Source of the DNA: Nostoc sp.
GTDB lineage: Bacteria > Cyanobacteriota > Cyanobacteriia > Cyanobacteriales > Nostocaceae
NCBI GenBank assembly: GCA_036918135.1
Contig: JBALDB010000018.1
Span: 1 to 64,000, forward strand
Direction of reading: 5' to 3'
Length of the DNA stretch: 64,000 nucleotides
Part shown: positions 36,275 through 47,596 of the stretch, piece after piece
How the letters are laid out: each line of letters opens with the position of its first letter
Position numbering within the stretch: the first letter of the stretch is position 1
Notes under the pieces: model-generated
The model's input: the letters and a program-made list of their open reading frames with translations, nothing else
Told to the model about the DNA's origin: nothing
The model's database searches: none
Position numbers and translations under genes: made by a program

Positions 36275-36323
36275 TGTAGTATCTCCTTGACAATATGTAT
36301 TTTATATATTACAAATGTAGTAT
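36275..36323 (+). promoter_or_regulatory. promoter with two TGTAGTAT operator boxes
   Basis: TGTAGTAT at 36275-36282 and 36316-36323 flanking TTGACA (36287-36292) and TACAAA 17 bp downstream. Confidence 0.65.
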
Positions 36324-36365
36324 GAGAACAAAAGCTTTTCTAAAAGGCTAAGGCAAAACATCTCA

Positions 36366-36385
36366 GAACCTAGAAAACCGAATAG
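36366..36385 (+). promoter_or_regulatory. rrn-type boxA antitermination-like element
   Basis: GAACCTAGAAAACCGAATAG resembles the cyanobacterial rRNA ITS boxA (GAACCTTGAAAA) and following motif; small hairpin upstream. Confidence 0.6.
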
Positions 36386-36401
36386 CAAGTTACGACTTTT
36401 T

Positions 36402-36482
36402 GGGGTCGCGATTGGTGTTCGACTGCTCCGAAACCAACAAACGGACGGTAGCAGGATTCGGGTTCAATTCCCGACGACTCCA
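36402..36482 (+). ncRNA. mini-tmRNA (tRNA-like domain only, no tag reading frame)
   Basis: GGGGTCG/CGACTCC-A acceptor with G3.U70; tmRNA-type D region TGGTGTTCGAC; T arm TCGGG-TTCAATT-CCCGA; short helix 2. Confidence 0.8.
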
Positions 36483-36499
36483 CTGACTTCTACTTGTTT

Positions 36500-36706
36500 G
36501 GGTCTGTAACTCTAATGGTAGAGCGCCCAGATTCACTTGTGCTCTGACAGAAAAAGCTTACATACTTGCTCAAAGGTAGAGCGATCGTCTCTAAAACGAT
36601 AAGTGCAGGTTCAATTCCTGCGGTGTAACCACAGCTTTTTCAACTCGCACGAAGTGTGAGTGCAACTCTCACAGGGAAGGTATCGGTTCAATTCCGATCA
36701 GATCCA
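36500..36706 (+). ncRNA. handle RNA 1: Ala-identity tRNA shell whose anticodon arm holds a handle carrying a second tRNA-like body (CUA anticodon)
   Basis: Outer GGGTCTG/CAGATCC-A with D and T arms; handle 36539-36650; inner cloverleaf 36558-36631. Confidence 0.8.
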
Positions 36707-36732
36707 CTAAATAATTTGTAATTCGTAATTAA

Positions 36733-36948
<216 letters not shown>

Positions 36949-36961
36949 AATATTTAGTTAA

Positions 36962-37141
36962 CCATGCCCTAACAGAAGAAGCATACATACACATTCATAA
37001 CGATCCTAAGGTAGTAAAATTCGAGCGATCAAACTAGCGAAGTATGATTTATAAATTTTTTGCAGATTTAGCATACGTGCCCACTGCCAATAGTTGGTAA
37101 GAGCGATCGTAAGCTGTAAAAAGCTTCTTAAACTTGTACGG
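36962..37141 (+). ncRNA. handle RNA 2: circularly permuted 23S rRNA domain IV (H67-H71) mimic
   Basis: Handle motifs at both ends; ATAACGATCCTAAGGTAGTAAAATTC (36997-37022) resembles 23S 1916-1941; 37078-37112 resembles truncated H68 plus the H69 5' strand. Confidence 0.75.
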
Positions 37142-37156
37142 ATTAATTGAAGAATT

Positions 37157-37300
37157 AATTCCGCGCCCTGACTTGTAAAGCATACAAACATATATCCGGT
37201 AACGGAATACAGGTTCGATTCCTGTCGCTCCCTTTGATGGGAGCGTAGCCAAATTGGTAAAGGCAACTGTGAAAACTGCTTTGCTAACTTGTGCGGAATT
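37157..37300 (+). ncRNA. handle RNA 3: YrlA-like RNA with a circularly permuted class II tRNA domain
   Basis: Order: variable arm, T arm, acceptor stem CGCTCCC-tttgat-GGGAGCG closed by a loop, D arm; enclosed by the handle. Confidence 0.85.
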
Positions 37301-37361
37301 TCAATTATTTAAAATAGTAGTGTTTAGAGCAAGCCTTAGTGATTTTTCAAAACTAAAACTT

Positions 37362-37491
<130 letters not shown>

Positions 37492-37649: not shown

Positions 37650-38030
37650 ATGTCTGTGAACACTCTAGAAATTTTAGAGCAAATCAAGTCTCTAAATGTC
37701 AATGAAACCGCTCAATTAGTAAAGCAGATTGAAGCAACTTTCAATGTCGATATATCCACACCTAAATTCCTTAAGATTGACAAGCGAGATGAGGATGAAA
37801 CTCAACCGCAGATTCAAACGGAATTTGATGTCTTGTTGGTATCGGTTCCAACAGAGAAAAAGATTGCCTTACTCAAGGTCATCCGGACGGTGACTGGACT
37901 GGGACTCAAAGAAGCAAAAGACTTTGTAGAATCCCTGCCTCAAGTAGTTCAAGCAGGACTGAATCAAGAAGCGGCTGAAATTCTTAAGCAGCAGCTAGAG
38001 GAAACAGGAGCAGTTGTTTCTCTGATGTAA
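37650..38030 (+). CDS. rplL: ribosomal protein L7/L12 paralogue
   Basis: QTEFDVLL, KKIALLKVIRTVTGLGLKEAKDFVES; not next to rplJ; atypical charged hinge. Confidence 0.9.
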   Translation: MSVNTLEILEQIKSLNVNETAQLVKQIEATFNVDISTPKFLKIDKRDEDETQPQIQTEFDVLLVSVPTEKKIALLKVIRTVTGLGLKEAKDFVESLPQVVQAGLNQEAAEILKQQLEETGAVVSLM

Positions 38031-38223: not shown

Positions 38224-39672
<1,449 letters not shown>

Positions 39673-39807: not shown

Positions 39808-40914
39808 CTAAACACCAAATAGGTACTTAGCAATGCTTTTATTTTTCATCAGAATGAATACAGCTAACCAACTCATGATAAAAGTGGGTAGAGAAAATGC
39901 TAATTGAGAAATAAAAGTTACTTCATCTAATAACTGAGGTTGAGTTTTCTTCAGATAAATCTCCATAAAATTAATTCCAAATAGGTGTATCAAGTAAATT
40001 CCAAAAGAACATAATGCTAAATTTCTTATGACGCTGTTTGGTTTTAAGTAATTCGATAAAACAATACCGTATAATAAAAGAGAATATCCCAGAAAAACTT
40101 CCCGAAAACCAGTAAGTATTGGGTTACTATAAACGTCAGCAATAAGAAATAAACCTAATAACAAGTAAGCATATACGAGTTTCACACGCAACAATGAAAA
40201 GTTGGTTTTAAGAAGTAAATACCTTAAAGTCATTGCAATAAAAAAGTAAGGTAAACACCTCAATAACCATGCTACTTCTATAGATATAAACCTCAAAAAC
40301 TCATTTTTAGAAGGCTCGTAATTCACTAGATTAAATAAATTATTAAAAGCTATATCGTTATGTAAATCTACTGTATTTCCAGTAATTAAAAGCAGGTTGT
40401 AGAGGATGAGGCTCAACAGAGACAAACTAGCTAATATTTTAAGTCCAATTTTCGGTTTTGCGAAGTAATTTGCAAATATTATGAGCGAAGTACCTACTAG
40501 CAATAGCGGTAAATAGTATAATTGATATGATGCTTTTCCATAAAATATAATTAAAAAAGGATCTCCTAATAGATGATTTAATTCTTCTTTTTGATTTGAT
40601 GCTGAAAACATAATTATTTTGGCAATCAGATAAATAACTGTCCAAACTATATATGGTATTAGGAGACGCCGACATCTTGCTTTCCAATAAGTTAATGAAA
40701 AGTCAGCATTCGACTTACAAATCATGAAGTAGAAAGATGCAGCTAAGAAAAAGGGAACAGCAAAACTAAATAGATATTGTATCTCTTGGGAAAAGTAACT
40801 TGCACGATCCCGATTTGGATCGGCTGAATGTAGTAAGACAACTGCGTATGCCGCGATTCCTCGGCACAAATCAACACCCGATAGCCTTGGTTTTGCCTCT
40901 ATTTTTGACTGCAT
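39808..40914 (-). CDS. acyltransferase family 3 membrane protein
   Basis: DLCRGIAAYAVVLLH, FAVPFF, RRLLIPY, SFGIYLIH; AT-rich. Confidence 0.9.
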   Translation of the reverse strand: MQSKIEAKPRLSGVDLCRGIAAYAVVLLHSADPNRDRASYFSQEIQYLFSFAVPFFLAASFYFMICKSNADFSLTYWKARCRRLLIPYIVWTVIYLIAKIIMFSASNQKEELNHLLGDPFLIIFYGKASYQLYYLPLLLVGTSLIIFANYFAKPKIGLKILASLSLLSLILYNLLLITGNTVDLHNDIAFNNLFNLVNYEPSKNEFLRFISIEVAWLLRCLPYFFIAMTLRYLLLKTNFSLLRVKLVYAYLLLGLFLIADVYSNPILTGFREVFLGYSLLLYGIVLSNYLKPNSVIRNLALCSFGIYLIHLFGINFMEIYLKKTQPQLLDEVTFISQLAFSLPTFIMSWLAVFILMKNKSIAKYLFGV

Positions 40915-40976: not shown

Positions 40977-41119
40977 TAGGACTTATGCACTTTACACATT
41001 GACTATCATGTGGATGGTAGGCTCGTTAAGCTAAAAGTCTTGCCCTGCCTCGTTCCCAGATTCTGCCTTGTAACGATAGGTAAGCCACAGTTGTTATCTC
41101 TGTGAATGCATAAGTCCTA
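40977..41119. repeat. MITE-like element with 13-bp inverted ends
   Basis: TAGGACTTATGCA ... TGCATAAGTCCTA. Confidence 0.6.
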
Positions 41120-41240
41120 ATAAAGTTAACCAATTAATATTAGAAATACCATACCATATAAAACCCGATTTGATTTATGAAAACATCATGAGACTAAAAA
41201 GCCCGTTTTATCTAAAATCTTATTCAAAAATTAAATATGA

Positions 41241-41549
<309 letters not shown>

Positions 41550-41707
41550 TGAAATCATTCTGCGTATGCAGATAAAGGTTTTGATGCTCTGAGTAATTTA
41601 GCTTTTTTGTCTTTGTTGAAATAAGGCTGTAAATTAAAGGGTTTAAGATCCGCTTTGTAGGCATAACTAGCAGCCAAAATATTTACCGGAAAGTAACAAG
41701 TGTTAAT

Positions 41708-41725
41708 TGTAGTATAATGTAGTAT
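41708..41725 (+). promoter_or_regulatory. tandem TGTAGTAT boxes overlapping a TATAAT -10 element
   Basis: TGTAGTATaaTGTAGTAT; TATAAT at 41713-41718, just upstream of handle RNA 6. Confidence 0.7.
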
Positions 41726-41735
41726 TAGAATCTCA

Positions 41736-41938
41736 TGCGTGCCCCAACTCGTGGAGCCTACATATTAGTACGAGAGGAAGGTAACACTGCCGAATGCAGT
41801 GGGCGTTAGTGAACGGGGAGTGCGAAGAACCTGGAAAGTGGGCTTAGAAGTAGCCATCTTTGAAAGAGTGTGTAACAACTCACCAGCGGAGTCCCTCTAG
41901 TAACTGAGAAAACGCAATGCTCCACCAACTTGCACGCA
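41736..41938 (+). ncRNA. handle RNA 6: sarcin-ricin loop plus GTPase-associated centre (H42-H44) mimic
   Basis: AGTACGAGAGGA at 41767-41778; 41830-41887 colinear with 23S 1051-1108; handle TGCGTGC/GCACGCA. Confidence 0.85.
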
Positions 41939-41976
41939 GAATTATACAGTAATCTTAAATTATTCGTTAGAACCAA

Positions 41977-42010
41977 GATACCCGACTTCTTTTGAAAAGT
42001 TGGGTATCTA
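41977..42010. terminator. hairpin between RNA 6 and the convergent gene
   Basis: AGATACCCGACTT...AAGTTGGGTATCT inverted repeat. Confidence 0.6.
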
Positions 42011-42030
42011 AACCCTACTGAGCGATAAAA

Positions 42031-42423
42031 TTAAAGTTTACTTTCAGTCTTTGACTTTAATACCTGTATCGCTTTGAATCCTTCTATAGTCTGACCTAAA
42101 AATATCATGGGAATAATCAAGCCAAACGGTTTACCTGTTTGAATCGTATTGTAAATGCCAGTTAACGCATTTAGCGACATCAATCCTACTGCAATACCTA
42201 GTGCAATTTTTGATTTACGTTGTACAAAAAAACCTAGAACTAGATAGAGTAAACCAAAACCTAAAAACCCAATTCCTAATATTAGATAATCAGGCAATCG
42301 ATTACCAACGATAAAGAATATTATGCTTAGGAAAATACTCAAAATTCCAATTGCGTAAACTGCACGATAAGCAGATGCTAACTTTTTTCTGGACTCTGAC
42401 ATCTGTTGTATTTCGGTAGTCAT
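42031..42423 (-). CDS. small integral membrane protein
   Basis: Four hydrophobic segments. Confidence 0.75.
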   Translation of the reverse strand: MTTEIQQMSESRKKLASAYRAVYAIGILSIFLSIIFFIVGNRLPDYLILGIGFLGFGLLYLVLGFFVQRKSKIALGIAVGLMSLNALTGIYNTIQTGKPFGLIIPMIFLGQTIEGFKAIQVLKSKTESKL

Positions 42424-42551
42424 GCTTTTTCTATTTTTTGGGTTTATTGAGAGTAAATAATGTAGAAGCTATAGAACTTAAAAGATATATTTTTTATATA
42501 CTTAAATTTATAAATTTGCTTATGTAATTTTGCTTAAAAAAACGATAATTT

Positions 42552-43382
42552 ATGACTGACATCCGTAAGCTAATCAACCAAATTGCTAGCGCAGAAGCAC
42601 AGTTGTGTAATACTCAATTTCTTGCGCCTTGTGTAAAAGGTGGACGAGTTCGCACACGAGTAGTAGGGATGGTCTATACCTTCACACCAAAGCCGAATAA
42701 ATTTGAAGGTTGGGGTATTTTTCAGCCGGTGGATGAGAAGATAGCAATGGTTGTGGAAGAGGCAGATTTACCTCAAATTGCCGAATACCTGCAACACTTT
42801 CCCCAAATACGGCTGCGGCTAGCATACCAACTGCGGGGACAAAGTTGGTTAGCATACCCCGTGAATGAAGCAGATATACGTCAACGGTTGCAGGTGGTTA
42901 AACCGATCGCCATTCATCTAGTAACTGAAAGTATTATTTTTGACCAAATCATCGCCCGTTGGAATGGACAGTCCTGCTGGTTTGAGGAAATCGATCATCG
43001 TACCGATCCGGCTATTGTTGAAACTCTGCAATCAGCTGTTAAGCAACTGATTCCCGTTGAAGAATTGCAATTTAAAGGCATAACGCCAGAAATTCGCACA
43101 GTCTATGAATTAGCAACACGGCAAATTGAAGGCTTTGGGCAACCCCAACAGGATGAAAAGCGATTGAGAAAGGCATTGCAGATGGGTGGCGGTGAATTAA
43201 AGCAGTTTCACGATCGCGGTGATTACTGGACAGTGGACTGGACAACTGCTGATGGTGTTCGCCACAGTAGTGCGATCGCCAAAACTGACTTGACTGTAAT
43301 CAGTTCTGGTATTTGCCTAAGTGGATACGATCGCAACTTTGACTTGCAATCGTTAGTTGGTGTAATGGAACAACAAGAGTAG
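42552..43382 (+). CDS. hypothetical protein with C-terminal SGICLSG motif, directly upstream of ThiF
   Basis: 276-aa ORF, 24 bp upstream of the ThiF gene; family not recognised. Confidence 0.85.
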   Translation: MTDIRKLINQIASAEAQLCNTQFLAPCVKGGRVRTRVVGMVYTFTPKPNKFEGWGIFQPVDEKIAMVVEEADLPQIAEYLQHFPQIRLRLAYQLRGQSWLAYPVNEADIRQRLQVVKPIAIHLVTESIIFDQIIARWNGQSCWFEEIDHRTDPAIVETLQSAVKQLIPVEELQFKGITPEIRTVYELATRQIEGFGQPQQDEKRLRKALQMGGGELKQFHDRGDYWTVDWTTADGVRHSSAIAKTDLTVISSGICLSGYDRNFDLQSLVGVMEQQE

Positions 43383-43406: not shown

Positions 43407-44045
43407 ATGAGTATCTTTTTTCACGAACAGCTTTACCGCAGCAATGCTGTGATGGCAAAGTTGAAAAACTATCCTGTAACAATTTGTGGGGCGGGGGCGT
43501 TAGGGGCTAATATTGCTGAGAATATGGCTCGGTCTGGTTTTGATAAACTGACAGTAATCGATTGCGATCGCATTGAGGAGCGTAATCTTTCCACCCAGCC
43601 TTACTACCGTTCCGATGTTGGAGCATTCAAAGCAAAAATATTGGCAAACAATTTATACCGAGCAATTGGTACTAAAGTTGATGCTAAAACCAAAGAATTG
43701 ACATCAGCAAATGTCAATCAACTACTCCAAGATAGTCAATTAATTATTGATGCTTTTGACAATAGCGTAGCACGTCAATTAGTAAAAGATTATGCCACTC
43801 AATTTAGCATTCCTTGTCTTCATGCTGGGCTAGCAGTTGATTATGCAGAGGTAATTTGGAATGATGTTTATCGCGTTCCTTCTGAGGTTAATGATGATGT
43901 TTGTGATTATCCTTTGGCACGAAACTTAGTAATATTAACCGTTGCTGTAGTATCGGAAGCGATTGTTTCATTTATTGCCACAACAGAACGGCGTAACTTC
44001 ACCATCACTTTGAAGGATTTGACTGTTCAACCTTTGTTTTTGTAG
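43407..44045 (+). CDS. ThiF/MoeB/E1-like adenylyltransferase
   Basis: GAGALG, D.DRIEERNLSTQ, KA, IIDAFDN..AR; lacks CxxC zinc pairs. Confidence 0.92.
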   Translation: MSIFFHEQLYRSNAVMAKLKNYPVTICGAGALGANIAENMARSGFDKLTVIDCDRIEERNLSTQPYYRSDVGAFKAKILANNLYRAIGTKVDAKTKELTSANVNQLLQDSQLIIDAFDNSVARQLVKDYATQFSIPCLHAGLAVDYAEVIWNDVYRVPSEVNDDVCDYPLARNLVILTVAVVSEAIVSFIATTERRNFTITLKDLTVQPLFL

Positions 44046-47015: not shown

Positions 47016-47540
47016 CTACTCGCTTTCATTCATCCGTTGTACGCTCCAAAAATGTTCTGCAAATGCAACGGCGGGGTGAATTGGAGCTTTAGGCTTGGTT
47101 TTGAGTACCATAGATGCTTCATGAGGTAAGCGATCGCTCTTAGTTGAGTTACACTTCTCGCAGGCAGTTACAACGTTATCCCAACTATGCTGTCCACCTT
47201 TGGAACGAGGAATCACATGGTCAAGGGTTAAACGCTTACCGCTACCACAGTATTGACAAGTATGATTATCGCGCTTGAGTACTTCACGACGATTTACAGG
47301 AGGTACTTTCCAGTGTCGTTCTGGATTACCCGTTGTCAAACGAATGTGTTCCGGAACTTGTAGTACAATACTGGGCGAGCGGACTTCCCACTGCTTTGTA
47401 CTGCCAAAATTCAATGATTCTGCTTGACCAGTAACTAACAGTACTATTGCTCGTTTGATGTTGATACGTGCCAATGGTAAGTAGTTCTTGGAGAAGACTA
47501 CCACCGAATTTTGTAGTATGTGTGGCTGCTGAACTTGCAT
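47016..47540 (-). CDS. HNH endonuclease
   Basis: RDNHTCQYCG..LTLDHVIPRSKGG..WDNVVTACEKCNSTK; ATG at 47540 with GAGGAG RBS. Confidence 0.93.
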   Translation of the reverse strand: MQVQQPHILQNSVVVFSKNYLPLARINIKRAIVLLVTGQAESLNFGSTKQWEVRSPSIVLQVPEHIRLTTGNPERHWKVPPVNRREVLKRDNHTCQYCGSGKRLTLDHVIPRSKGGQHSWDNVVTACEKCNSTKSDRLPHEASMVLKTKPKAPIHPAVAFAEHFWSVQRMNESE

Positions 47541-47556
47541 GGATAAAGAGCTCCTC

Positions 47557-47596
47557 AAAAAAATAACCCCCACTTCTGGTTATCAGCAGCGGGGGT
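47557..47596 (-). terminator. terminator/attenuator immediately upstream of the HNH RBS
   Basis: ACCCCCGCT...AGTGGGGGT-TATTTTTTT on the minus strand. Confidence 0.75.

Follow-up and report, generated by a model that had tools for sequence, protein, structure and literature searches.

A conserved small RNA of cyanobacteria that joins likenesses of the sarcin-ricin loop and of helices 42–44 of 23S rRNA

The sarcin-ricin loop (SRL) and the GTPase-associated centre (GAC, helices H42–H44) are the two rRNA elements touched by every translational GTPase. H42–H44 is also the natural binding site of ribosomal proteins L10 and L11, and ricin- and sarcin-type toxins and thiopeptide antibiotics act on these two elements. 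As laboratory constructs, the 58-nt L11-binding domain (E. coli 23S 1051–1108) and SRL oligonucleotides fold, and bind ligands, on their own in vitro. The cyanobacterial RNA considered here holds the same two minimal domains; it differs from the laboratory fragments in that both are joined in one natural, conserved molecule. Short extra-ribosomal RNAs that copy an rRNA protein-binding site are also known as the mRNA leaders of ribosomal-protein operons (PMC7247131 is an example), which act in cis on those operons and have one site each. The cyanobacterial RNA, by contrast, is mostly unlinked to an mRNA and combines two rRNA sites that are far apart, and its closing stem is common to tRNA-like RNAs. 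A literature search (covering the tRNA-array papers discussed below by their main texts) found no prior description of a small RNA with SRL and H42–H44, and to our knowledge no natural conserved small RNA uniting minimal copies of the two has been described.

A described system with closer overall resemblance is that of the bacterial Y RNAs of the YrlA type and their Ro60/Rsr partner (RF02553; PMC4201824). As presented in the sections of that paper that were consulted, the ends of the non-coding RNA form a long stem with a conserved motif, the RNAs are encoded in an array next to a Ro-type gene, and a module mimics an RNA of the translation apparatus, all of which has its counterpart here. The module of YrlA, however, copies tRNA and the cyanobacterial one rRNA (SRL and H42–H44); Y RNAs are quoted there as 80–130 nt long against ~200 nt; the cyanobacterial stem motif is GCGTGNCCYAAC... 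/ ...AACTTGCACGC and not the published GNCGAAN0-1G; and the candidate partner protein is not matched by Pfam TROVE. The divergent Ro60 of Thermus phage phiLo binds the nearby-encoded Y-like RNAs Yrl1 and Yrl2 (9l5y, 9kop; PMC12135203), and the likeness of the cyanobacterial protein to it extends over the helical part and the vWA domain. The consulted part of that paper reports no rRNA mimicry for the phiLo RNAs, and the phiLo particle is reported to engage PNPase.

The remaining relevant system is that of the long tRNA arrays of cyanobacteria and the TrcR regulon. The sequence protected by TrcR, 5′-TGTAGTAT-3′, overlaps the trn operon's −10 box (PMC10272220), and two tandem repeats with 2–3 nt spacing over the −10 box and transcription start confer regulation (PMC8421152). 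The latter paper also has the trn operon induced by ribosome-targeting antibiotics, tRNA arrays aiding survival and an HNH endonuclease at the edge of an array; the RNA ligase RtcB belongs to the TrcR regulon. What the consulted parts describe are tRNA and protein genes. In the main texts of the two papers ‘23S’, ‘VWA’ and ‘ThiF’ are absent, and so is the L12 protein (there is no ‘L12’ in PMC8421152, and in PMC10272220 it occurs solely in gene names, all1284). The present locus is like this regulon in its tandem TGTAGTAT over a likely −10 box and in the proposed theme of impaired translation.

In the window, that is the whole 64,000-nt stretch of Nostoc DNA that was analysed, the RNA gene is at 41736–41938 on the + strand, with the 5′ end of the RNA probably near 41732 and its 3′ end near 41938–41946. 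It is without annotation in the one annotated RefSeq record examined. RNA-library contigs of relatives (matching through conserved parts, at most 13% of the sampled words, with no start, end, strand or level to be read from them for this strain) include one that begins 4 nt before 41736 and two short ones, of 179 and 165 nt, that correspond solely to 41750–41928 and 41762–41925. These short contigs are a weak hint of a discrete transcript of ~200 nt. The best explanation of the locus is a gene for a stable non-coding RNA of that size belonging to a conserved cyanobacterial family.

The ends of the RNA pair, as those of Y RNAs do, into a long stem. Its 5′ strand (41736–41757) comprises P1 (41736–41742), an internal loop that begins CCCAAC, and P2 (41751–41757); its 3′ strand (41919–41938) comprises P2 (41919–41925), the motif AACTTGCACG (41927–41936) and P1 (41932–41938). 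P1 has 6 pairs and P2 7, three of them compensatory in each (6/13), and 92–93% of cells are paired. Inside this stem come the SRL-like hairpin and then, as the earlier note had it, a further hairpin: P4 at 41785–41801, a spacer with compensatory changes in 5/5 pairs. In the element at 41803–41815, the 5′ strand of P5 (41803–41807, pairing with 41911–41915; 4/6 pairs compensatory) is followed by GAACG. Together with TAGTAAC (41898–41904), this looks like a second loop-E or bulged-G motif, a reading made by eye from the AGUA/GAA signature. A K-turn between P5 and the base of H42, also considered by eye, was dropped as the position needing a conserved A varies, and a tertiary contact in which GGGCG->GCGCG would accompany CTGAG->CTCAG was dropped as inconsistent across alignment rows. 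The single-sequence minimum free energy fold is no better than that of shuffles (z −1.08), which is uninformative, so the structural case rests on covariation.

The SRL 12-mer, AGTACGAGAGGA, occurs once in the window, on the + strand at 41767–41778 where it had been reported, against 0.01 expected from shuffles, and it is identical in 92 of 92 family copies. It is set in a hairpin (41763–41783, +) whose GAGA loop is closed by C41771–G41776. The motif AGUACGAGAGGA with its GAGA tetraloop is likewise invariant in all 92, and the flanking stem is 94% paired. Identity to H95 of E. coli and of cyanobacteria extends for 13–14 nt; the flanking stem is unlike that of real H95. The bulged-G motif is predicted here from sequence.

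The H42–H43–H44 mimic is at 41816–41897 (+), with a 58-nt core at 41830–41887. The core is gapless with E. coli 23S 1051–1108 at exactly 41/58 identities (reference, E. coli rrlH), the count previously made by eye. The Rfam bacterial LSU model matches 41831–41886 on the + strand with 51 bits (gathering 50), E 2.8e-12 and model positions 1093–1148; a permissive, E-value-mode Rfam scan of 41000–42600 was without the LSU match and gave no family besides one chance sRNA match. BLAST against large-subunit rRNA, which had been suggested as a check, takes the likeness to E. coli 1036–1114 (56/79, one gap) and to cyanobacterial 23S (53/68). As E. coli 1036–1114 is reached, the stretch spans H42–H44 and not just H43/44. 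The two compensations described earlier are both present: CCAG/CUGG to CUGG/CCAG at 1052–1055/1104–1107, and C1092–G1099 to U–A, the latter in 91 of 92 family members. At the top of H42 3/4 pairs are compensatory, one pair at its base varies between A-U, G-C and G-U, and the H43 and H44 helices are kept across the family.

Several features of the GAC fold are retained: helices 8–11 are kept and covary, the H44 loop is conserved, and the equivalents of 1072, 1092 and 1099 co-change from C, C and G to U, U and A in 89–91 of the 92 copies. In 23S rRNA, positions 1072/(1092–1099) form the base triple of the centre. The equivalents of A1067 and A1095, reported earlier as kept, are both A in the window; across the family this holds mostly for A1095 (A in 86/92) but not for A1067, which is A in 75 copies, G in 13 and C in 4. 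The H43 loop varies across the family at the A1067 equivalent and at neighbouring positions, so the mimic is under less than the full constraint of the real factor and L11 site. The variability of A1067 argues against a strict copy of the contact with thiostrepton and the L11 N-domain. A second look-alike in the same genome, of the GAC only, is in the leader of an AAA+ ATPase gene.

Full or near-full copies are found by BLAST in about 90 of 301 genomes of the order, with 69–92% identity. An exact-pattern scan of 185,579 species genomes gives at least 119 loci; among the 80 matches listed, all have cyanobacterial titles except one Actinomycetota-labelled MAG and two entries termed ‘uncultured bacterium’. 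The family is widespread in filamentous cyanobacteria, also on plasmids, and its copies are conserved over many cyanobacterial families; in a divergent copy both modules are kept and the connector differs. Going by the titles of matching records, culturable carriers include Calothrix brevissima NIES-22, Nostoc sp. NIES-4103 and Dolichospermum flos-aquae CCAP 1403/13F. RNAalifold on 30 copies yields 49 pairs, 13 of them compensatory. Scored on 92 copies, a 53-pair structure is 96.0% paired and has 23 pairs changed on both sides, values that 0/500 shuffles reach and against which slid controls are 36–54% paired. Covariation among homologues, another proposed check, is thus found. There is next to no chance that the locus is a functionless remnant of 23S rRNA, be it a decayed fragment or a chimeric pseudogene, even though there is local likeness to 23S and the assembly of this genome has no 23S gene for comparison. 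Colinearity with 23S does not go beyond single helices: solely H95 (13–14 nt) and H42–H44 (~79 nt) match, in reversed order and 50 nt apart rather than ~1,600, and the sequence around each module is not that of real rRNA. The same architecture, with its 23/53 compensatory pairs, is kept in many families. This spread, the covariation and the invariant 12-mer refute the debris reading and, with the co-change of the triple, they uphold the main contention of the earlier note, that a structural copy of two rRNA elements is under selection.

Two tandem TGTAGTAT boxes (41708–41715 and 41718–41725, +) are 2 nt apart and overlap a likely −10 element, TAGTAT, at 41720–41725. Both are exact and match the published TrcR site and its arrangement, the RNA gene being a candidate member of the TrcR regulon. 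There are 8 such boxes in the window against 1.8 expected; a box of this type is upstream in 30/79 loci, and stand-alone copies of the RNA, the window copy included, carry the tandem pair. An own TATAAT promoter and a downstream hairpin had been claimed. TATAAT is indeed present at 41713–41718, but a consensus scan for promoters and terminators gives nothing on the + strand, and judged from its boxes the promoter would belong to the TrcR-operator type and not be a plain TATAAT. Downstream there is an inverted repeat at 41976–42009, which has 13-nt arms and is without a T run.

At 15 of 20 other loci sampled, the RNA stands among the genes of a long tRNA array and in their orientation. The window copy is not in such an array, with just two tRNA-like genes within 5 kb; an HNH endonuclease gene (47016–47573, −) is of a type that cyanobacterial long tRNA arrays have at their edge, and its homologs are at the array edge in two of the loci, L047 and L052. 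No Anabaena 7120 plasmid is among the matches of the plasmid search and the trn operon is on a megaplasmid, so the trn operon that has been studied is probably without the RNA.

The candidate protein partner is encoded at 38239–39672 (+). It is a 477-aa Ro60-like protein with a helical N-terminal part and a vWA domain (Pfam), whose DxSGS motif, here DKSGSM, is that of a MIDAS. With phmmer it matches the Thermus phage Ro60 homolog 9l5y over residues 25–391 (E 4.2e-4, a weak 22.7 bits), and the phage homolog provides its sole PDB matches with E<1. Pfam TROVE does not match it, and a 7-sequence profile of Ro-like proteins found nothing among PDB sequences; the Ro60 link, as read from these comparisons, is weak. 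The Ro-like protein is present in 87 of 90 RNA-bearing genomes, and neither is present in 184 of 301; the protein is without BLAST-detectable RNA in 27 genomes and the RNA without the protein in 3, counts that overstate the association since related genomes are not independent. For comparison, canonical Pfam TROVE is in 16/90 RNA-bearing genomes (odds ratio 0.75). Adjacency to a Ro60-like gene and inheritance with it, as for Y RNAs, are both seen. The RNA adjoins the Ro-like gene in the window, in four further genomes (G132, G258, G201 and G078) and in others; in most genomes the RNA copy is in a tRNA array, some kb or more away. This points to a divergent Ro-like family, annotated just as ‘vWA domain protein’, with its own set of RNAs.

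The same closing stem flanks tRNA-like RNAs at 36529–36651 and 37360–37485, and the motifs GCYTACATAY and AACTYGYRCG are common to the RNA and the tRNA-like RNAs of the locus. AACTYGYRCG occurs 7 times in the window against 0.7 expected (5 of these in the locus, on the + strand) and 44 times in 20 context loci against 4.8. Its occurrences gather shortly before the Ro-like gene and in the same orientation, as is seen in 8 further loci. In the window an array of Y-like RNAs with these stem motifs (36275–37490, +) stands behind TGTAGTAT boxes at 36275 and 36316. Its elements, all on the + strand, are one like the tRNA-like domain of tmRNA (36402–36485; Rfam tmRNA 43.2, below gathering), a tRNA-like one with CUA (36558–36630), a short one that ends at 37140, a YrlA-like one (37208–37264; Rfam YrlA 24.1 bits, gathering 69) and a tRNA-like one with GCG (37389–37463). 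Since its stem is common to these tRNA-like and tmRNA-like neighbours, the ~200-nt RNA is read as a Y-RNA-type molecule.

By sequence the ~200-nt RNA is itself no YrlA. Rfam YrlA (RF02553) and Y_RNA have no match at 41000–42600 with E up to 10, and near its 5′ end the RNA has GCGTGNCCYAAC instead of the published Ro-binding motif GNCGAAN0-1G; with a divergent Ro-like protein as partner, a different stem motif is expected. A canonical TROVE gene on another contig of the genome comes with YrlA-like RNAs of its own (37.6 bits, E 1.2e-5), which carry the published GNCGAA-type motif and are without AACTYGYRCG. The Ro-like protein is proposed to bind the ~200-nt RNA at the 5′ strand of its closing stem. 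Alternatively, the stem that this RNA has in common with its tRNA-like neighbours could mark transcripts for processing instead of being a site at which protein binds.

Besides the Ro-like protein, the RNA co-occurs with an L7/L12 paralog, a protein of several predicted OB folds and a ThiF-like protein. The first of these is the L7/L12 paralog (37650–38030, +; Pfam, and TIGR00855 with 101.6 bits), whose alignment shows the N-terminal dimerisation and L10-binding domain and the C-terminal factor-binding domain kept and the hinge different; a genuine rplA-rplJ-rplL cluster is elsewhere in the genome. Two or more L12 matches are found in 57/301 genomes, 49 of which have the Ro-like protein (~43% of the 114 that do), and in at least 23 genomes the paralog gene is 0.2–2.6 kb from the Ro-like gene. 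A complex prediction for the Ro-like protein with two copies of the paralog scores 0.17 (mark 0.32), which is evidence neither way. The gene for the second (42552–43382, +) encodes a 276-aa protein of no Pfam family, predicted to have a central OB fold flanked by further beta domains. Its AF2 model has pLDDT 94.4 (50 from 16 close sequences); Foldseek relates the model to Unr cold-shock domains and RNase II, and VIA-align relates residues 83–151 to S17/IF1-type OB folds with Z ~7. Pfam on 105 relatives gives no family beyond 3 stray single matches, and a protein atlas search gave nothing. The 276-aa protein is found in 111 of the 114 genomes with the Ro-like protein and in 85 of the 90 that bear the RNA. 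It forms an operon with a 212-aa ThiF/E1-like adenylyltransferase (43407–44045, +); PADLOC reports generic E1 and HNH matches at the locus and nothing else.

The reading preferred here, with a probability of roughly 0.55, is that the RNA resembles Y RNAs, is induced by stress and presents a factor-docking site in miniature, as tether or decoy. The paired ends form the long stem with its conserved internal loop, on which the SRL and H42–H44 modules are carried; the stem would bind the co-inherited Ro60-like (helical plus vWA) protein, with the modules acting as bait or tether. Stand-alone copies are probably under TrcR repression until impaired translation induces them, and copies in arrays are probably co-transcribed with the tRNAs and then cut out. 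In the particle a miniature factor-binding site would lie free. Stalk proteins (L10/L11 and the L12 paralog) and translational GTPases could be held there; alternatively, the site could capture agents directed against the SRL or the GAC. Either action would modulate or protect translation during stress. A more specific form is possible, though doubtful. It is a mini GTPase-associated centre with a ring of the Ro-like protein on the stem, H42–H44 binding L10/L11 and the L12 paralog, and the SRL alongside; it would dock translational GTPases off the ribosome, perhaps triggering GTP hydrolysis, or lure SRL- or GAC-directed toxins. If this mini-centre exists, Y-type RNAs would be a general platform that displays functional sites of tRNA, tmRNA and rRNA. 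The RNA would give a simple natural system for what the SRL and H42–H44 do without the rest of the ribosome, would extend bacterial Y-RNA mimicry from tRNA to rRNA, and would add to the long tRNA arrays, and to the TrcR response to translation stress, a member other than tRNA.

The RNA might also act without the Ro-like protein, as a free-standing decoy that titrates ribotoxin-type nucleases or glycosidases, rRNA-modifying toxins or thiopeptide-type antibiotics, the stem serving for stability or for excision from arrays. This is unlikely, attractive as it is that an exact toxin-target 12-mer is invariant in 92/92, that the arrays in which the RNA lies at 15/20 loci respond to ribosome-targeting antibiotics by induction, promote survival (PMC8421152, in the part consulted) and could by the same logic supply spare copies of targets, and that RtcB is named in the TrcR regulon. 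The A1067 equivalent, conserved in just 75/92, is unexpected for a thiopeptide decoy; at the copy number of an sRNA the decoy would compete with thousands of ribosomes; and the co-occurrence with the Ro-like protein (87/90) and the 276-aa protein (85/90) would be left unexplained. Distinctly less probable is a stalk-like particle nucleated by the RNA with L10, L11 and the L12 paralog, which would bind or sequester translational GTPases, the Ro-like protein having no direct part. H42–H44 naturally binds L10 and L11, the covariation of the base triple keeps the tertiary fold, and the paralog retains both its domains and is in the same island in at least 23 genomes. However, fewer than half of the genomes with the partner genes of the RNA contain the paralog, it adjoins the Ro-like gene and not the RNA, and no L10 or L11 paralog is seen in the island.

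Very unlikely, finally, is a cis-acting 5′ leader of the 276-aa/ThiF operon, in which the rRNA mimic would serve feedback control with a ribosomal protein, or the OB-fold protein itself, as ligand, in the manner of ribosomal-protein leaders. In genome G258 and on plasmid pAfl69 the RNA precedes the 276-aa gene by ~95 nt, with both on the same strand, in G201 it is 440 nt upstream, and the position of the GAC-only look-alike in a gene leader would fit. These arrangements are outweighed by the 15/20 loci with the RNA in a tRNA array far from the operon, by G227, in which RNA and operon are ~280 kb apart, by the opposite-strand gene that separates the two in the window and in G132, and by the short RNA-library contigs, which consist of the RNA alone.

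In the window the RNA follows a broken Ro-like fragment, a duplicate of residues ~249–333 with one TGA (41331–41585, +) directly upstream of it, and an acyltransferase gene is between the intact Ro-like gene and the RNA. The trio of RNA, 276-aa protein and ThiF, in that order, is also found on plasmid pAfl69 of Dolichospermum.

The SRL/GAC RNA is read here, with a probability of roughly 0.55, as a Y-RNA-type molecule whose synthesis would respond to impaired translation and whose stem would bind the Ro-like protein. Its SRL + H42-44 module, putatively presenting a copy of the site where factors dock on the ribosome, would act as a tether or decoy; the targets might be stalk proteins including the island's L12 paralog, translational GTPases, or toxins directed at the SRL or GAC. 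Ro-associated modular RNAs mimicking RNAs of translation are a known kind, among which we place it. In the literature searched, no counterpart of the module, no RNA joining SRL and GAC and no rRNA-mimicking Y-type RNA was found described. The analysis shows the family, its structure, the likeness to rRNA, the gene linkage and the operator-like boxes; the binding steps, the induction and the physiological role are inferred from these.

The window's 64 kb contain AGTACGAGAGGA, the SRL 12-mer from which the earlier note set out, a single time (forward strand, 41767-41778; shuffles expect 0.01), and it is unchanged in 92/92 copies of the RNA. The SRL part shares 13-14 exact bases with rRNA; its flanking stem is unlike real H95. 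For the GAC-like part, the references were E. coli rrlH and two cyanobacterial 23S genes, a 23S gene being absent from the assembly of the window's genome. The gapless match of 41830-41887 to E. coli 23S 1051-1108 that had been claimed was reproduced by a position-by-position count of 41/58. BLAST widened the likeness to E. coli 1036-1114 (56/79, one gap) and gave 53/68 with a cyanobacterial 23S; since it extends beyond the 58-nt core, the copied element is the whole H42-H43-H44 arm. With 51 bits (gathering 50, E 2.8e-12), 41831-41886 also aligns to positions 1093-1148 of the Rfam model for bacterial LSU rRNA, a match that a subsequent evalue-mode scan of 41000-42600 with looser settings did not list.

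Most positions of the core that are conserved in the three reference genes are retained. Where the copies depart from rRNA, C1072 to U (89/92), C1092 to U (91/92) and G1099 to A (91/92) are replaced together. These bases presumably form the base triple of the L11-binding domain, with U/U-A as an isosteric alternative; if so, the tertiary fold, beyond the helices, is preserved. Both A1067 and A1095 had been said to be kept in the window's copy. Across the family the H44 loop is conserved, with A in 86 of the 92 at the A1095 equivalent; the A1067 equivalent is A in 75, G in 13 and C in 4, and within the same unconserved H43 loop the 1068 and 1070 equivalents vary too. A divergent copy in one genome (G269) keeps both modules with a different connector between them.

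RNAalifold predicted 49 pairs from 30 copies, 13 with compensatory changes. A 53-pair structure, drawn by hand and scored on 92 distinct copies, has standard pairs in 96.0% of cells, and covariation, proposed earlier as a check, was found as changes on both sides at 23 of the 53 pairs. No shuffle of 500 matched any measure, and sliding partners by 1-3 columns lowers pairing to 36-54%. On the forward strand, P1 (41736-41742 with 41932-41938) is followed, across a conserved internal loop, by P2 (41751-41757 with 41919-41925), the SRL hairpin (41763-41783) and a spacer hairpin (41785-41801); the latter is the hairpin noted earlier after the SRL, with compensatory changes at 5/5 pairs. P5 (41803-41807 with 41911-41915) leads to an H42-like helix, in whose base one pair varies among A-U, G-C and G-U and in whose top 3/4 pairs are compensatory, and then to H43 and H44. 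GAACG and TAGTAAC stand opposite each other where P5 gives way to the base of H42, by eye the putative signature of a second loop-E/bulged-G motif.

Selection rather than rRNA debris had been proposed, and a conserved gene family with covarying base pairs in about 90 of 301 genomes of the same order accords with it. BLAST of 41725-41945 finds full or near-full copies there, in many families, at 69-92% identity; its other matches are the real 23S H43/44 region. An exact-pattern scan of all bacteria and archaea, one genome per species, gave at least 119 loci, and the 80 matches listed carry cyanobacterial titles (for example Nostoc, Microcoleus, Calothrix, Tolypothrix, Okeania, Leptolyngbya, Crinalium) except for a MAG with the label Actinomycetota and two that are called 'uncultured bacterium'. 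The spread is patchy (2/17 in the window's own family), which fits a mobile island. Two plasmids carry the RNA, Dolichospermum flos-aquae pAfl69, with no annotated feature under it, and a Kovacikia plasmid whose record is entirely unannotated. On the 69-kb pAfl69 (NZ_CP051207.1; locus L185, 2366-4352) the RNA, 276-aa protein and ThiF form a trio that adjoins an IS1634 transposase; an HNH endonuclease lies further along, which the PLSDB resistance predictor labels lincosamide nucleotidyltransferase, apparently a mislabel.

The genes for the L12 paralog and the Ro-like, 276-aa and ThiF-like proteins lie on the RNA's strand. The L7/L12 paralog (37650-38030) has both Pfam domains (TIGR00855, 101.6 bits), and the genome carries its genuine rplA-rplJ-rplL cluster on a different contig; such paralogs retain N- and C-terminal domains with a different, charged hinge. 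The Ro-like protein, of 477 aa and with a vWA domain (38239-39672), is publicly named 'vWA domain-containing' or 'hypothetical', nothing more. Its sole PDB matches at E<1 are to the Thermus phage phiLo Ro60 homolog (E 4.2e-4, residues 25-391), a HEAT + vWA ring reported to bind two Y-like RNAs (PMC12135203); Pfam TROVE did not match it, nor did a small profile of Ro-like proteins match PDB. Beyond the RNA come the 276-aa protein (42552-43382), in no known family, and a ThiF/E1-like protein (43407-44045). The 276-aa model from a deep alignment (pLDDT 94.4) retrieves cold-shock and S1-type proteins in Foldseek, and VIA-align puts residues 83-151 at Z ~7 to OB folds; with modest confidence it is read as a multi-OB-fold protein, probably RNA-binding. 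Directly 5′ of the RNA, at 41241-41585, is a partial, broken copy of the Ro-like gene that spans residues ~249-333 and contains one TGA, and an acyltransferase gene on the opposite strand (39808-40914) separates it from the intact gene; together they suggest a rearrangement that split an ancestral order, Ro-like gene then RNA. An additional AACTTGCACG motif sits within the acyltransferase region (40797-40806). The gap separating the RNA from the 276-aa gene holds, in the window and in G132, a predicted membrane protein of 130 aa (42031-42423, reverse strand; 67% identical in G132) with weak matches to YtpI and a 2TM effector model.

Upstream on the same strand is a small-RNA array (36275-37490), whose elements all share the extended enclosing stem of the SRL/GAC RNA. 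It holds a miniature tmRNA-like tRNA domain (36402-36485; Rfam tmRNA 43.2 bits, gathering 47), two tRNA-like elements called by ARAGORN as tRNA(CUA) (36558-36630) and tRNA(GCG) (37389-37463), and a weak YrlA match (37208-37264, 24.1 bits). GCYTACATAY occurs three times in the window against 0.58 expected; the two tRNA-like RNAs have one each, as does the SRL/GAC RNA. AACTYGYRCG occurs seven times against 0.7, five of them at the 3′ ends of array RNAs and the SRL/GAC RNA; 20 context loci of other genomes have 44 against 4.8 expected, with clusters directly 5′ of the Ro-like gene and in its orientation in L039, L040, L046, L047, L048, L052, L054 and L056. The tmRNA-like domain has acceptor stem, T arm and a UUCGAC-type D-loop analogue and misses the mRNA part; with it the array would include a third type of translation-RNA mimic. 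Genes with the amber-reading CUA anticodon, labelled tRNA-Pyl by ARAGORN, recur in relatives' tRNA arrays (L040 4603-4677, L046 17830-17903), and those of the window, because enclosed in the extended Y-like stem, may be mimics and not working suppressor tRNAs.

The same genome has a canonical TROVE/Ro60 gene (590-aa frame) on contig C32, 92923-96696 (L183/L184), adjoined by two tandem YrlA-like RNAs that score below gathering (37.6 bits, E 1.2e-5). Both carry tRNA-like arms and a GNCGAA-type motif, the published YrlA motif (PMC4201824), and AACTYGYRCG is absent; the genome thus seems to house two distinct Ro-type systems and a dedicated set of RNAs for each. Chen et al. 2014 report few YrlA RNAs in cyanobacteria (PMC4201824); their search began with TROVE-annotated proteins and so would miss the Ro-like family.

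Across the 301 genomes, in which counts are descriptive since related genomes are not independent, 90 bear the RNA and 114 the Ro-like protein; 87 have both, 3 the RNA alone, 27 the protein alone and 184 neither. The control, canonical Pfam TROVE, is in 63 genomes and 16/90 RNA-bearing ones (odds ratio 0.75, p 0.44). Among 57 genomes with at least two L12 matches 49 have the Ro-like protein, and in 23 genomes the L12 paralog lies 0.2-2.6 kb from its gene. The 276-aa protein is in 85/90 RNA-bearing genomes; 115 genomes have that protein, 111 of them with the Ro-like protein. Of the rival readings, a decoy independent of the Ro-like protein is unlikely and a stalk-like particle formed without Ro distinctly improbable; a cis-leader of the downstream 276-aa/ThiF operon, a very doubtful reading, fits only the minority of loci with the operon directly 3′ of the RNA.

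The Y-RNA-type reading with stress-linked synthesis draws on the setting. In 15/20 context loci a long tRNA array (5 to 34 genes within 8 kb, same strand) surrounds the RNA, usually placed between tRNA-Arg and tRNA-Ala-His-Ser; in the other five, as in the window, it is solitary and close to the Ro-like gene or 276-aa/ThiF operon. The Anabaena 7120 trn operon, as described, is normally silent, and ribosome-targeting antibiotics raise its expression 100- to 1000-fold; it favours survival, has a conserved HNH endonuclease gene at its edge and owes its regulation to 9-nt repeats in tandem across the −10 box and transcription start site (PMC8421152). Its repressor is TrcR, whose trn site, TGTAGTAT, overlaps the −10 box of the promoter and whose regulon includes rtcB, rsgA, rimK and an AAA ATPase (all0263) (PMC10272220). 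The main texts of both papers contain no '23S', 'VWA' or 'ThiF' and mention no L12 protein. The studied operon is on a megaplasmid and no Anabaena 7120 plasmid was among the matches of a plasmid search with the RNA, so it probably lacks the SRL/GAC RNA.

The window has eight TGTAGTAT against 1.8 expected, among them two exact tandem operator-like boxes, 2 nt apart, at 41708-41725; another two, at 36275 and 36316, precede the Y-like array. With a candidate −10 at 41720-41725, transcription would start near 41732; a relative's RNA-library contig, a weak hint, starts 4 nt before 41736. Among 79 loci the box is upstream of the RNA in 30, AAGGAGG ~60 nt upstream in 40, both in 1 and neither in 10. 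This perfect Shine-Dalgarno-like element, conserved before array-embedded copies (L064-L143, e.g. L070, L080, L105), is in many loci followed by a very short open frame and hardly ever coincides with the TGTAGTAT promoter; a role as a stalling-sensitive leader or as anti-Shine-Dalgarno bait is conceivable. On contig C56 of the window's genome a second H43/44-like element without SRL (190538-190587, reverse strand; L008 8539-8588) is 84% identical to 41825-41874. Behind a promoter-like TTTGTAGTATACTATAAT and ~150 nt upstream of a 400-aa AAA+ ATPase ORF (L008 7189-8391), it could be an rRNA-mimic mRNA leader.
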